From the NCBI GenBank assembly GCA_030603185.1, contig JAUVYG010000001.1:1-63981 (forward strand): 63,981 nucleotides of DNA, given 5' to 3'. Shown here piece by piece: positions 872-5,554 of the stretch. A program made the position numbers and the translations under genes. Within the stretch, counting starts at the first letter, position 1. Each line of letters opens with the position of its first letter. This DNA comes from Actinomycetota bacterium (GTDB lineage Bacteria > Actinomycetota > JAUVYG01). The notes below the pieces were generated by a model. It was not told the origin of the DNA and searched no databases. It saw only the letters and a program-made list of their open reading frames with translations.

Positions 872-2119
872 TTGAAATTAAGGTGCACTGTGACCAACAA
901 CGAAGAGCATCACGACCACCTAGAGACTCTTGTAATAGCAGAGGGCGACAGCAAACAGCCTCAGGTGTATATCGACGATACGACCTTAAGAGATGGCGAA
1001 CAGACGGCCGGCGTAGTGTTCGCAAACGCGGAAAAGATCAGGATCGCCAGACTTCTGGATGAAGTCGGAGTCAATCAGATCGAGGTCGGCATTCCCGCCA
1101 TGAAGGGCGATGAGAAGCAGACGATCGCAGACATCGTCGAGCTAGGCCTCAATGCCTCTATATTGGCGTGGAACCGGGCGGTTAAGTCTGACATTCAGCA
1201 TTCCATTGATTGTGGTGTGGACTCCGTCGCGATATCGATGTCAGCCTCTGAGATCCATATGGAGTACAAGCTTCAGAAGAGCAAGCAGTGGGTCTTAGAC
1301 AGCGTTCGATCTGCGGTAGAGTTTGCAAAGGAGAACGAGCTCTATGTCTCAGTCAATGCTGAGGATGCCTCGCGAGCTGAGCCTGACTTCCTCTTAGACT
1401 TTGCGAACACAGCGAAAGATTCCGGGGCTGATCGCCTTCGTTTCTGTGACACCCTCGGGGTGCTGGACCCATTTTCGACCTACGACTACATCAAGTTTCT
1501 ACGTGATAACGTCGACATTGACATCGAAATGCACACTCACAATGATTTCGGGATGGCAACGGCGAACACGCTCGCAGGCATTAAGGCCGGGGCCACCTAT
1601 GTTAATACCACCGTTAACGGATTAGGCGAGCGCGCAGGAAATGCGCCGCTAGAAGAGGTCATCATGGCCCTCAAGCATATGGGCGGTTTAGACCTGGGAT
1701 TCAAGACTCAGATGTTCCGCGAGTTGTCAGAGTATGTTGCAGGAGCATCCACCAGGACCATTCCAATATGGAAGTCCATCGTAGGCACTAACGTATTCGC
1801 CCACGAGAGCGGTATTCATGCCGATGGTGTCATGAAGAACCCCGCCACATACGAAGCCTTTCCGCCGGAAGAAGTGGGTCTTGAAAGGCAACTGATCATA
1901 GGCAAGCACTCAGGCAGCAAGTCCATCGTGATGAAGTTCCACGAGTACGGGATCGATTTGCCCGAGGACCAAGCCCAAGATGTGCTGGTCGAGGTTCGCA
2001 AGAGCGCAATCGCCCTAAAGAGAGCTTTGTTCGATAAAGAGTTAATGTTCATATACAAGGATTACCTCGCTCTGAAAGAGCGAGTCGACGTCAATGCAGG
2101 AATGGAGACAAAGATTTGA
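872..2119 (+). CDS. NifV/LeuA-family 2-oxoacid:acetyl-CoA condensing enzyme (homocitrate synthase-like; candidate Re-citrate synthase)
   Basis: Carries the DRE-TIM metal-site motifs [14 protein letters not shown] and [13 protein letters not shown]. Its 415 aa lack a LeuA C-terminal regulatory domain. The start is uncertain (TTG 872 or GTG 890). The stop overlaps the next start (TTGA at 2116-2119). Confidence 0.8.
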
Positions 2120-2262
2120 GCACGCACAAAGTAACGATGATTCCCGGAGACGGAATAGGACCAGAGATTTCGGAAGCCATGAGAATGGTCGTGGAATCCA
2201 CCGGTATAGAGCGCATGGTCGACGACGAGACTGCTGAGAGCATCAAGAGGATCACCAACGCG
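2116..2262 (+). pseudogene. N-terminal stub of a resident isocitrate/isopropylmalate dehydrogenase-family gene
   Basis: The TTG start overlaps the upstream stop. [31 protein letters not shown] is the family N-terminal dinucleotide-fold motif. The frame ends at TAG 2263 after 49 codons. Confidence 0.7.
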
Positions 2263-2422
2263 TAGAAGGCGGAACCGGTCTTGAGGTACTTGACGGCATC
2301 CGGCTCAGTGGCCATGGCAATGGTGTCCCCGTGTCCGCCCAGAACCATGGTCCAAAATTTTGATGCTTTGATAAATAAACCTGATTGCATCGTTAAGATG
2401 CCCTGACACGATAGGTACACGA

Positions 2423-4648
2423 ATGTCTGATTCCAAGATCATCTATACCATCACCGACGAGGCCCCAGCGCTGGCGACCCAGTCCCTGCTGCCCATCATC
2501 CGGGCCTTTACTGCCTCCTCGGGTATCGCTATCGAAACCAAGGATATCTCCCTGGCAGGCCGTATCGTGGCCAATTTCCCCGACAACCTGACCGAGGCAC
2601 AGAAACAAGCCGATGCTCTTTCAGAGCTGGGTGAGATGGCCAAGACCCCCGAGGCCAATATCATCAAGCTGCCTAATATCAGTGCCTCTATCCCTCAGCT
2701 TAAGGCAGCCATCACCGAGCTTCAGGAGAAGGGTTATGACCTGCCCGATTACCCGGAAGAGCCCCAGAATGAGGCCGAACAAGAGATCAAAGCCCGCTAT
2801 GCCAAGGTGCTCGGCAGTGCGGTGAACCCGGTCCTGCGTGAGGGTAACTCGGATCGTCGTGCCCCGGGTTCTGTAAAGCAGTACGCCAGGAACAACCCCC
2901 ACTCCATGGGTGAGTGGAAGGCCGATTCCAAGTCCCATGTGGCCTCCATGAGTGGCGGTGACTTTTTCGGTAATGAACAATCGGTGACCGTGCCTGCCGC
3001 AACCGATGCCGAGATCGAGTTTGTGGGTGCGGATGGCTCCGTCCAGGTGCTGAAAGAGAAGGTGGCCCTCCAGGCCGGTGAGATCATCGATTCCACCTGC
3101 ATGAGCAAGAAAGGTCTGCGTGAGTTTCTGGCGGCCGAGATTGAGGATGCCAAGGCCAACGATGTGCTCTTCTCCCTGCACATGAAGGCGACCATGATGA
3201 AGGTCTCCGACCCCATTATCTTCGGACACGCCGTCTCGGTCTTCTATGCCGATGTGTTTGACAAGCATGCCGCGGTGCTTGAGGAGCTGGGTGTGGACAC
3301 CAATAACGGTATTGGTGATCTCTATACCAAGATCCAGTCCCTGCCCGAGGCACAGCGTACCGAGATCGAGGCCGATCTGAATGCCGTCTATGCCCAGCGT
3401 CCTGCCATGGCCATGGTCAACTCCGACAAGGGGATCACCAATCTGCATGTTCCATCCGATGTGATTATCGATGCCTCCATGCCGGCCGCCATCCGTACCT
3501 CGGGTCAGATGTGGGGCCCCGATGGTCAGCAGAAGGACACCAAGTTTGTGATTCCCGATCGCTGCTATGCCGGTGTCTATCAGGAGGTGATCGAGTTCTG
3601 TAAAAAGAACGGCGCCTTCGACCCCACCACCATGGGTAGCGTGCCCAATGTGGGTCTGATGGCGCAGCAGGCCGAAGAGTACGGCTCACATGACAAGACC
3701 TTCCAGAGCCCTGCGAATGGCAGTGTGCGTGTAGTGGATGGTGCTGGAAATACACTCATGGAGCACAGTGTGGAAGAGGGTGATATCTGGCGTGCCTGCC
3801 AGACCAAAGACGCCCCGATCCGTGATTGGGTCAAGTTGGCTGTGACCCGCGCCCGTGCCACCGGTTCACCCGCCGTCTTCTGGCTGGATAAGAACCGTGC
3901 CCACGATGCCCAGCTGATTGAGAAGGTGAATCAGTACCTGCCTGAGCACGATACCAGTGGTCTGGAGATCCACATCATGTCACCCATTGAGGCGACCCGT
4001 TTCTCCCTCGAACGCATTAAAGAGGGCAAGGACACCATCTCGGTGACGGGAAATGTGCTGCGTGACTACCTGACCGATCTCTTCCCAATCCTGGAGCTGG
4101 GTACCAGCGCTAAGGTGCTTTCGGTGGTGCCGCTGATGAATGGTGGCGGTCTGTTCGAGACCGGTGCCGGTGGTTCGGCCCCCAAACACGTACAGCAGCT
4201 GGTGGAAGAGAACCATTTGCGTTGGGATTCGCTGGGTGAATTTTTGGCCCTGGCCGCTTCACTGGAGCACTACAGTAATGTGACCGGTAATGCCAAGGCC
4301 AAGGTGCTGGCCGATACCCTGGACCAGGCCACTGGCCAGTTCCTGGACAGCAACAAGTCACCGTCACGTAAGGTGGGTGAGCTGGATAACCGCGGCAGCC
4401 ACTTCTACCTGGCCCAGTACTGGGCACAGGCCCTTGCCGCACAGGATCAAGATGCAGAGCTGAAGGCCCAATTTGCCCCAGTGGTCACAGAGCTAACCAG
4501 CAATGAGCAGGCCATTGTGGATGAGCTCAATGGTTGCCAGGGTGGTGCGGTTGATCTGGGAGGTTACTATCGCCCGGTGGATGAGCAGGTCGCTGCTGTC
4601 ATGCGTCCAAGTAATACTCTGAACGCTGCTCTGGCGACCCTTGGTTGA
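2423..4648 (+). CDS. idh: Monomeric NADP-dependent isocitrate dehydrogenase (741 aa)
   Basis: Length and near-colinear sequence match the Azotobacter/Pseudomonas/Vibrio monomeric IDH as recalled. Matching stretches include [59 protein letters not shown] and [19 protein letters not shown]. Confidence 0.93.
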
Positions 4649-4682
4649 ATCTAAGCCCGAGTTGGGCTGAAACCCCTACAAA

Positions 4683-4719
4683 GGCCGGGATGAGCAGATC
4701 ATCCCGGCCTTTTTTATTT
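4683..4719 (+). terminator. Rho-independent terminator of idh
   Basis: Perfect 11-bp stem GGCCGGGATGA / TCATCCCGGCC (4683-4693 / 4699-4709) with a 5-nt loop, followed by TTTTTATTTT. Confidence 0.85.
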
Positions 4720-4899
4720 TCTCGCCCAGACTGCATTTACCCCTTTGTCAAGATTGCGCCTGCTTTCGGATCTAATCTATGCTTGCTGCAGTAAGGGGAG
4801 GTTTTATGCCTGCTCATGTGTTGTGGTTAATTGGGGACAGGGCTAGAACTTTGGGCTGATCGCCCCCATCTAAGTGTGAAATCAGACGGGTAGGAGCCG

Positions 4900-4980
4900 A
4901 TGGCAGGTCAAGACGATTGGTGGGAAGACGGTGATTTAGAGGTTCAGGAGGCCAAACCTGGGGTCAAACCTCCGCCACTC
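4900..4980 (+). pseudogene. clpS: 5' stub (27 codons) of a proteobacterial-type clpS
   Basis: RBS TAGGAG at 4891-4896, then ATG 4900. MAGQDDWWEDGDLEVQEAKPGVKPPPL matches the ClpS N-terminus up to the KPPxMYKV core, then breaks off. Confidence 0.6.
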
Positions 4981-4981
4981 T

Positions 4982-5554
4982 GCATCAGAGCGGATCTCTA
5001 AGTTCGCCTTTGACTACGCGCAGGAAGAGGGCCGCAAGATGGTCAGCTGTGTGACCAAAGCTAACATCATGAAATTCTCTGATGGTATGTTTCTGGACTC
5101 ATTCCGAAATATTGCCAAGGATTACCCAGATATTACCCCTGATGAGCGTTTGATCGATGCAATGTGTATGCAGCTGGTCATGAATCCACAGAATTTCGAC
5201 ACAATGGTAATGCCGAATCTCTACGGAGATGTGGTCTCAGATCTTTGTGCAGGCCTTGTTGGCGGCCTCGGGCTAGCTCCCGGAGCAAATATTGGCGATG
5301 AACTAGCGGTATTCGAACCAACGCACGGAAGTGCTCCGAAGTACGCTGGTACCAACAAGATAAACCCCACAGCGATCATTCTTTCTTCCGTTCTGATGCT
5401 ACGTCACCTTGGCGAGAAAGTCGCTGCGGACAACGTATTAGCAGCGGATAGACACGTTATAGGTGAAGGCAAGACCGTCACTTATGATCTTGGTGGAACT
5501 GCTGGAACGAAAGAGATGGGCGAAGCAATTGCTGAGCACATCTCAACCCTCTGA
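4982..5554 (+). pseudogene. C-terminal ~190 codons of a resident isocitrate/isopropylmalate dehydrogenase-family gene (KY NADP-type signature)
   Basis: The frame reads ASERISKFAFDYAQEEGRKMVSCVTKANIMKFSDGMF ... NLYGDVVSDLCAGLVGGLGLAPGANIG ... FEPTHGSAPKYAGTNKINP. No N-terminal half is attached. Confidence 0.75.

Follow-up and report, generated by a model that had tools for sequence, protein, structure and literature searches.

An intact monomeric isocitrate dehydrogenase gene inside a split resident isocitrate dehydrogenase gene of an Actinomycetota bacterium: a likely case of horizontal gene replacement in progress

How does an intact gene for one kind of isocitrate dehydrogenase (IDH) come to lie between the two broken pieces of a gene for another? 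This arrangement is found in a stretch of 63,981 nucleotides from an Actinomycetota bacterium (contig JAUVYG010000001.1 of GenBank assembly GCA_030603185.1), and the whole of this stretch is called the window below. In the window a foreign block carrying the gene of a monomeric (type III) NADP-IDH, referred to here as idh, interrupts a resident gene of the Iso_dh domain family, which we read as a small type I NADP-IDH gene. A preliminary description of this DNA had proposed horizontal gene transfer and displacement of the resident IDH in place. That proposal is now upheld by contigs of other assemblies that carry the same locus, by the foreign composition and gene order of the block, and by relatives in which the resident gene is intact. 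We found that idh occupies the resident slot in the resident orientation, that it is foreign among native neighbours, that the resident gene is dead, and that its counterparts in relatives are whole. We therefore consider it very likely that the locus has been caught during replacement of a resident gene, in situ, by a horizontally acquired one.

A block inserted between adjacent codons of the resident gene

Features were identified from an open reading frame (ORF) map, from reading of the sequence, and from Pfam and NCBIfam profile searches of the window (Table 1). We found that the resident Iso_dh gene is present as two pieces, as had been described. The TTG start of the 5' piece, at 2116, overlaps the TGA stop of the NifV-like gene, which is the host operon gene directly 5' of the disrupted IDH gene. 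The 3' piece still has an open reading frame and carries the NADP-type signature seen in the preliminary description, in the form HGSAPKYAG. Both remnants were aligned to P0123 (332 aa, 77% identical), P0124 and P0130, the intact relatives nearest to them, and both were found to be colinear with these proteins of 332-333 aa.

The block had been thought to take the place of about 100 missing codons from the middle of the gene. Instead, the alignment shows that it sits between codons that are adjacent in relatives: the window reads ...KRITN, then the block, then SASERI..., where the relatives read KRITRGASERI or KRITRSASERV. The block joins the resident gene at 2258/2259 on the left and inside 4977-4981 on the right, with a few bases of microhomology at most. 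The missing codons were lost elsewhere, within the 5' remnant, where Iso_dh codon 30 is joined in frame to codon ~128 and ~97 codons between them are deleted. The joint of this deletion shows GGT...ATAGAG (GGT/GIE) microhomology between TG(VD)IEW and AGIERM. Thus the foreign block (~2259-4980) is a clean insertion and the ~97-codon loss is a separate in-frame deletion. The composite 5' ORF that results runs across the left junction and stops at a TAG (2263-2265) within foreign DNA, so that the resident gene is now split, shortened by 97 codons and closed by a premature stop.

The contrast in composition between block and flank that had been pointed out in the preliminary description is borne out by counts. 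GC (guanine plus cytosine) content is 57.5% in idh, 52.6% in the window and 48.4% in the Iso_dh 3' remnant. In tetranucleotide usage, 2353-4981 departs from the remainder of the window with z = 8.85, a distance greater than that of any of the 282 host windows of equal size. CTG makes up 68% of the Leu codons of the block versus 21% in the host, where the highest gene reaches 41%, and AGA, AGG, ATA and CTA together occur 2.7 times per 1000 codons versus 50 in the host, where the lowest gene has 16.7. Long antisense ORFs run through the block as well, for example one of 275 aa at 2621-3448. The second-strongest tetranucleotide outlier of the window is 57001-59500 (z ~1.9, GC 0.50), which is far weaker than the idh block.

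The sole complete gene of the block is idh. Its product matches PF03971 with 1341 bits over profile positions 1-733 of 734, and TIGR00178 with 1356.3 bits against a cutoff of 950, residues 3-740 falling on profile positions 5-742 of 744. Among solved structures the best match is Azotobacter vinelandii IDH (1ITW_A, 1198 bits), with which residues 1-740 are colinear; mycobacterial and corynebacterial monomeric IDHs score lower, at 1001-1015 bits. In the Azotobacter numbering, which is the same, the window IDH has S132, N135, R139, R145, K255, D350, Y420, R547, D548, D552, K588, H589, R600 and R649, which we take to be residues of the substrate, metal and NADP sites of the Azotobacter enzyme. The predicted product is an ordinary member of the monomeric (type III) NADP-IDH family.

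Beyond the host clade, the closest IDH homologs are 81% (GCA_050302415.1) and 78% (Pleionea sp.) identical, and many from Gammaproteobacteria are 74-76% identical. Gene order at such loci is idh-clpS-clpA-infA for the 81% homolog (locus L002) and idh-cspD-clpS-clpA at another (L084). In the window, idh is followed by a terminator and by the beginning of clpS, which matches positions 26-42 of the L002 ClpS with 72% identity (pairwise E = 1e-6). The flanks, on the other hand, match Actinomycetota and Bacillota relatives, so that separate homolog searches, like the tetranucleotide and codon profiles, set block and flanks apart. Because of its composition, its idh-terminator-clpS order, its Azotobacter-like IDH and its ClpS match, the block is gammaproteobacterial-type DNA.

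The contents listed for the block in the preliminary description, namely an intact monomeric NADP-IDH gene of 741 codons with its AT-rich upstream spacer, a terminator and 27 codons of clpS, were all found; what had been overlooked is a piece of a malate dehydrogenase (MDH)-like gene on the minus strand at the left end. All 10 matches of this piece in the PDB are malate dehydrogenases, which is weak evidence at the E values obtained (E <= 1.3, ~0.2), and it has no Pfam or NCBIfam match. It consists of two colinear motifs, at residues ~172-186 and ~218-235 of such enzymes, from between which ~31-35 internal codons seem to be gone. The GC content of its third codon positions is 0.80, closer to the block than to the host (P = 0.005 under the host value). 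There is no second copy within the window, and we therefore rejected the idea that it was copied from a host gene there. At the other end of the block, the clpS fragment and the Iso_dh piece lie in different frames, that of clpS stopping at 4999-5001; a fusion ORF of the two was thus rejected.

We found no terminal inverted or direct repeats and no target duplication at 2259/4980, no recombinase gene in the block and no tRNA gene nearby; a tRNA scan and an Rfam scan of the whole 64-kb window returned nothing. A transposon, an insertion sequence, an integron cassette and a genomic island were accordingly rejected as descriptions of the block.

Table 1. Features at and around the interrupted resident gene, in positions of the window.
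Feature	Position	Strand	Basis
gatB, 3' end	169-762	+	profile search
NifV-like homocitrate-synthase-family gene	872-2119	+	PF00682 and PF22617; TIGR02660 530 bits, cutoff 463
49-codon composite ORF, Iso_dh N-terminus	2116-2265	+	PF00180 positions 1-28
Resident Iso_dh (type I NADP-IDH) remnant, codons 1-30 (...VVESTG)	2116-2205	+	PF00180 1-28; alignment to intact relatives
Resident Iso_dh remnant, codons ~128-146	2206-2259	+	alignment; codon-level comparison with the intact L088 gene
MDH-like remnant (lactate dehydrogenase-like MDH type), 30 codons, MVLGGHGDT...LKTGSAFYA	2259-2348	-	weak PDB matches
AT-rich upstream region of idh	2353-2422	+	68/70 bases identical to L001
idh, monomeric (type III) NADP-isocitrate dehydrogenase, 741 aa, intact	2423-4648	+	PF03971, TIGR00178 full length
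Intrinsic terminator of idh	4680-4712	+	14-bp stem, 5-nt loop, T-run
Donor-type intergenic DNA, idh to clpS	4713-4899	+	97-98% identical to L001; no host homology
First 27 codons of clpS, cut at right junction	4900-4980	+	13/18 residues identical to ClpS of L002
Resident Iso_dh remnant, C-terminal 191 codons (SASERISKF...HGSAPKYAG...STL*)	4979-5554	+	PF00180 positions 163-348
Host-side tract co-transferred with the cassette	4982-5035	+	0 mismatches to L001 over 54 bp
GAF/HD-GYP regulator	5555-7018	-	profile search

Further 3' lie a phosphoribosyltransferase gene (QRPTase_N and QRPTase_C domains), a D-Ala-D-Ala carboxypeptidase gene, glycine-cleavage genes (gcvT/P), ffh, rimM, trmD, eno, argS and rplI. 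The setting is a core chromosomal neighbourhood. Of the 51 ORFs of at least 150 aa in the window, 49 are on the plus strand.

The same cassette in diverged relatives

A protein search with the window IDH brought up a 5885-bp Joint Genome Institute (JGI) contig from sample 3300033144, called L001 here, whose IDH is 99% identical. Its order is the 3' end of the NifV-like gene, 8 bp, the cassette from window position ~2353-2358 on, idh, the terminator, the clpS fragment, the Iso_dh 3' piece, the GAF/HD-GYP gene and the phosphoribosyltransferase gene. At the right junction L001 and the window agree base for base. To the left, sequence common to both contigs ends between 2353 and 2358 and is unrelated beyond. 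L001 has neither the 5' Iso_dh remnant nor the MDH-like remnant, and its idh begins 75 bp past the NifV stop. In L001 an extra A just before the idh stop codon (2579-2603 of that contig) adds 6 residues, giving 747 aa, and the terminator stem (2620-2650) is altered at two places, from G to A in its 5' arm and from C to A in its 3' arm, neither change compensating for the other; both regions correspond to window 4642-4712. These changes may represent early erosion of donor 3' signals.

The second contig, L086 (GCA_004196295.1, 3160 bp), was found by a protein search with the GAF/HD-GYP regulator. It opens with 156 bp, 98.7% identical to the window, that cover the 3' part of the monomeric idh and 13 bp more. 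A ~10-bp relic of the terminator loop (TGAGCAGATC) follows, then the last ~54 Iso_dh codons, and then the same downstream genes. The terminator, the clpS fragment and two thirds of the Iso_dh 3' remnant are missing, and the part that is left carries a +1 frameshift caused by an extra A (~290-300 of the reverse complement; window ~5509). The Iso_dh remnant of L086 is thus a decaying pseudogene. Exact scans of a metagenome contig collection with the right junction and with the idh leader gave no match, a result of little weight since even the L001 contig is absent from that collection.

The divergence between the window and L001 differs sharply between cassette and flanks. The flanks are 72-87% identical and the cassette 98-100%. 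For the Iso_dh 3' piece, synonymous divergence (dS) is 1.2-1.5 and non-synonymous divergence (dN) 0.024, a ratio (omega) of 0.02; for the 3' end of the NifV-like gene, dS is 0.83 and omega 0.05. By comparison idh has dS 0.0125 and dN 0.0068 (18 differences), and the non-coding parts of the cassette differ at 9 of 403 bp (5 of 251 bp in the intergenic DNA). These values indicate that strong purifying selection acted on the resident gene for ~99% of the period that followed the separation of the two lineages, and that the cassette copies would have split only ~1% of that time ago. Given so young an insertion, after which decay would not show yet, and given that the remnant is deleted and frameshifted in L086, we rejected as unnecessary the idea that the omega of 0.02 reflects an Iso_dh 3' remnant that is still functional.

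The high identity does not end at the right junction. The host tract 4982-5035 is also free of mismatches to L001 (54 bp), after which ~17% divergence sets in; at the flank divergence rate such a tract has P = 4.7e-5. Because the identical tract ends in abrupt divergence, it points to a crossover in flanking host homology, which would put a recombination breakpoint near 5036. Because the right junction is common to the window and L001, separate captures from the donor are excluded. The shared junction and the young cassette therefore imply that the cassette passed between lineages after the first insertion.

The comparison of the window with L086 over 5400-8400 gives a mosaic: the Iso_dh remnant is ~95% identical, the GAF/HD-GYP gene 69-86% and the phosphoribosyltransferase gene 93-97%. 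A third lineage may have taken part by recombination, or else the GAF/HD-GYP gene may evolve unusually fast. Recombination is evidently common in this clade.

What the locus looked like before can be read from relatives. We fetched 80 genome loci with NifV-like homologs (62-73% identity), the best of them from Thermoleophilia and other Actinomycetota metagenome-assembled genomes, followed by Bacillota. By these matches the host would be placed, tentatively, among uncultured Actinomycetota. None of the 80 has a monomeric IDH. In most of them an Iso_dh gene lies directly 3' of the NifV-like gene or after two genes of the two-subunit aconitase/homoaconitase family (HacA/HacB-like), and gatB is often upstream of the NifV-like gene, as in the window. 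The NifV-HacA-HacB-Iso_dh order is seen, for example, at L003 (6998-11084) and at many other loci (L004-L076). L088 (SRR22387842), the nearest relative with the resident gene whole, has an intact 332-aa Iso_dh gene 26 bp past the 3' end of its NifV-like gene, with no HacA/HacB between. The preliminary description had named an intact gene of about 335 aa as what the closest relatives should be inspected for, and they do have one, of 332-333 aa and without a monomeric IDH. The contig of a fourth relative, L087 (SRR18502801), ends 390 bp into the Iso_dh gene.

Equivalence of the two enzymes and competing explanations

Replacement implies that the two enzymes do the same work. The intact relatives P0123, P0124, P0126 and P0130 carry an FRSVNV motif, in a segment that is deleted in the window; its Ser and Asn are presumably the counterparts of S113 and N115 of E. 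coli IDH, which act in isocitrate recognition. The KY of the HGSAPKYAG motif kept in the window we likewise take to be K344 and Y345 of E. coli IDH, the NADP type. The monomeric IDH and the Iso_dh protein show no significant similarity to each other (BLASTP E = 0.1, and only around the GSAPK motif). The two families had been called not homologous in the preliminary description. The absence of detectable similarity holds, and with it misassembly driven by homology is ruled out, but to call the families not homologous goes too far, since monomeric IDHs are classed within the IDH family as its type III subfamily and share <10% identity with types I and II (PMC8287583).

The neighbouring gene bears on the same question. 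In anaerobes, NifV-like genes that lie outside nif clusters have been documented to encode Re-citrate synthases, which are commonly annotated as homocitrate synthase (PMC12016533). The NifV-like gene of this locus is of that kind by context, being outside a nif cluster and linked, in relatives, to aconitase-like and IDH genes, and its product is probably a Re-citrate synthase. The operon would then plausibly be Re-citrate synthase - (aconitase) - IDH, leading to 2-oxoglutarate. Taken with the motifs, this is consistent with both IDHs being isocitrate/NADP enzymes, that is, isofunctional.

Could the arrangement be an artifact? The preliminary description had kept in view an assembly or scaffolding chimera, in which gammaproteobacterial reads were misjoined into an actinobacterial-type contig. 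The sharp compositional break, the metagenomic origin of the data, and the several very short pieces left of the cassette, in an arrangement unique to the window, would all fit such an error. However, two more contigs from other assemblies, with flanks 13-18% diverged, have the same cassette at the same locus. The right junction recurs in L001, and the L086 junction can be derived from it by deletions. The cassette copies are ~1% apart and hence do not come from the same reads, and clpS and idh have no sequence in common with Iso_dh that could mislead an assembler. Because three contigs of three assemblies put idh in the same host slot, we take the insertion to be real and the chimera, which is extremely improbable, to be effectively refuted. 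A different objection is that the insertion is real but old, made once in a common ancestor and inherited vertically, and that it looks young through constraint or gene conversion without any spread between lineages. This would account for the same locus in all three lineages and the same right junction in two, and the mosaic of the window and L086 flanks (69-97%) shows that recombination is frequent anyway. Yet the cassette is ~99% identical at its synonymous and non-coding sites too, where flank dS is 0.8-1.5. An omega of 0.02 for the remnant, in a gene that was functional for ~99% of the time since the split, is incompatible with an old disruption, and later gene conversion between lineages would be inter-lineage transfer itself. 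The flank dS and omega values, set against a near-identical cassette, thus argue against an old, vertically inherited insertion, and we regard it as quite unlikely.

Several observations do weigh against an in situ replacement or the details that we give for it, and those on the resident enzyme favour a neutral hit: the resident gene would have encoded a beta-decarboxylating dehydrogenase of another kind, for homoisocitrate or a different substrate, or would have been a redundant paralog, and the monomeric IDH would be an addition. The resident family falls under every IDH equivalog cutoff, P0123 scoring 432.9 on NF006529 (cutoff 510) and 394 on TIGR00175 (cutoff 432), and models of homoisocitrate dehydrogenase do nearly as well (366 on NF040626, cutoff 540). 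In relatives the gene follows HacA/HacB-like (homoaconitase-family) genes and the NifV-like synthase, so that the resident enzyme may have homoisocitrate or broader specificity, and no HacA/HacB homolog or aconitase-like gene was found in the 64-kb window. Against a neutral hit stand the isocitrate-type FRSVNV motif of intact relatives and the NADP-type K-Y motif, whose meaning comes from work on the E. coli enzyme, and the omega of 0.02, which shows that the gene was still important until recently. As noted, Re-citrate synthases of anaerobes are documented among such NifV-like genes (PMC12016533), and in each of three lineages the very slot that lost the resident gene gained an isocitrate-specific enzyme. 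A neutral hit is in our view unlikely. Other points that count against replacement concern the cassette. A simple promoter scan found no consensus sigma-70 promoter upstream of idh. The donor itself is unsampled, the best IDH match being only 81% at the amino-acid level. The MDH-like remnant is at odds with donor-type gene order: no mdh is found upstream of idh in the donor-type loci, where L002 and L084 have an rluE-like pseudouridine synthase gene and L083 and L085 unrelated genes. Of the 18 differences in idh, 6.5 are synonymous and 11.5 non-synonymous (omega ~0.54, not significantly different from neutral, binomial P = 0.24), and these substitutions alone do not demonstrate purifying selection in the new hosts. 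The cassette is known from three contigs only, two of them short, and the left junction of the window is seen in the window alone. The cassette-bearing lineages are known from contigs alone, which also bears on the question of a second IDH elsewhere in their genomes.

Proposed course of events and comparison with known systems

The replacement that we favour would have started from a host with the gene order gatB - NifV-like synthase - small type I NADP-IDH. A gammaproteobacterial-type fragment of ~2.7 kb, made up of the MDH-like scrap, idh between the leader and terminator that belong to it, and 27 clpS codons, would have been inserted between adjacent codons of the resident IDH gene. We infer illegitimate recombination, and not a mobile element, because terminal repeats and a recombinase gene are lacking. 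The insertion would have inactivated the resident gene and at once supplied an enzyme for the same reaction in operon orientation; insertion into an important gene would be tolerable because the insert carries the replacement. No terminator was found between the NifV-like gene and idh, and a weak AGG lies 8 nt before the idh ATG. Because the genes have the same orientation with no terminator in between, read-through into idh is possible, and its transcription would start at the promoter of the host operon and perhaps, in addition, within the idh leader (2353-2422). The idh terminator would then end the transcript ahead of the dead 3' remnant.

Remnants without use would afterwards have been removed by lineage-specific deletions, which would progressively streamline the locus. 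The window may represent a stage at which the 5' remnant has lost 97 codons in frame, L001 one in which the 5' remnant and the MDH scrap are lost, and L086 one in which the terminator, the clpS fragment and two thirds of the 3' remnant are lost and the rest is frameshifted. The cassette would also have moved recently between diverged relatives by recombination anchored in flanking host homology. The left junction of L001, just after the NifV stop, could be the product of homology-facilitated illegitimate recombination or of a later deletion. Spread into at least two further lineages suggests a selective advantage. Selection had been suggested in the preliminary description, and a cassette ~99% identical between lineages with flank dS of ~1 lends this support.

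A bolder version is tenable, although we stop a little short of favouring it. In this version the cassette is now sweeping across species boundaries in an uncultured Actinomycetota-like clade, replacing the small NADP-IDH each time by homology-anchored recombination, and the lineages are snapshots of the process. Their order would be fresh insertion, loss of the 5' remnant, and then loss of the terminator, the clpS fragment and most of the 3' remnant. The chain of pieces at the left end of the window (Iso_dh codons 1-30, codons 128-146 and two antisense MDH segments) would come from one event with multiple template switches, not from later deletions.

Returning to in situ replacement itself, such displacement is usually inferred long afterwards from mosaic operons, and here an intermediate would be preserved. 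It is unusual in that both gene halves and fragments of donor neighbours are still attached, that three stages of decay are seen, and that the cassette appears to cross lineages by way of host flanks. The locus would thus offer a natural time series of foreign DNA landing in an important gene, of the rate at which remnants are deleted, of operon restoration, and of the spread of a cassette to relatives. It also bears on the long-standing question of the patchy distribution of type I and type III IDHs.

Omelchenko, Makarova, Wolf, Rogozin and Koonin reportedly described xenologous and non-orthologous gene displacement in situ within operons in 2003 (Genome Biol 4:R55). The present locus resembles such cases in that the slot is taken by an acquired gene for the same step and the remaining operon is native. 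Gene displacement in situ after horizontal transfer is a known kind of event in the part of the literature covered here (Omelchenko et al. 2003, via PMC1480536). Unlike published displacements, which were inferred from phylogenetic mosaicism, the displaced halves here still flank the incomer and successive clean-up can be followed in three lineages. The incomer also belongs to a different IDH subfamily than the resident, type III versus type I.

As a piece of donor DNA, the block resembles the gammaproteobacterial idh-(cspD)-clpS-clpA neighbourhood in having idh and then clpS, and in the full-length match of its IDH to that of Azotobacter vinelandii (1ITW/1J1W). It differs from that neighbourhood in lying within an actinobacterial-type core operon, in the cut of clpS after 27 codons, and in having the MDH-like scrap upstream instead of an rluE-like gene.

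In homology-facilitated illegitimate recombination, incoming DNA is anchored by homology at one end and joined illegitimately at the other. This was reportedly described in transformable bacteria by de Vries and Wackernagel in 2002. L001 would fit the scheme, with an identical host tract of 54 bp and a step in divergence on the right and a novel junction 8 bp past the NifV stop on the left. Unlike in those bacteria, the mechanism is read here from sequence only.

Horizontal acquisition of a type III IDH has a precedent in marine algae, where PtIDH2 of Phaeodactylum was obtained in this way (PMC8287583). In both cases a monomeric IDH of marine-bacterial type would have been transferred over a long range to a lineage unrelated to its source. 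PtIDH2, however, joined the gene set of a eukaryote as an extra gene, whereas the monomeric IDH gene described here was inserted into a resident bacterial IDH gene and very likely replaces it.

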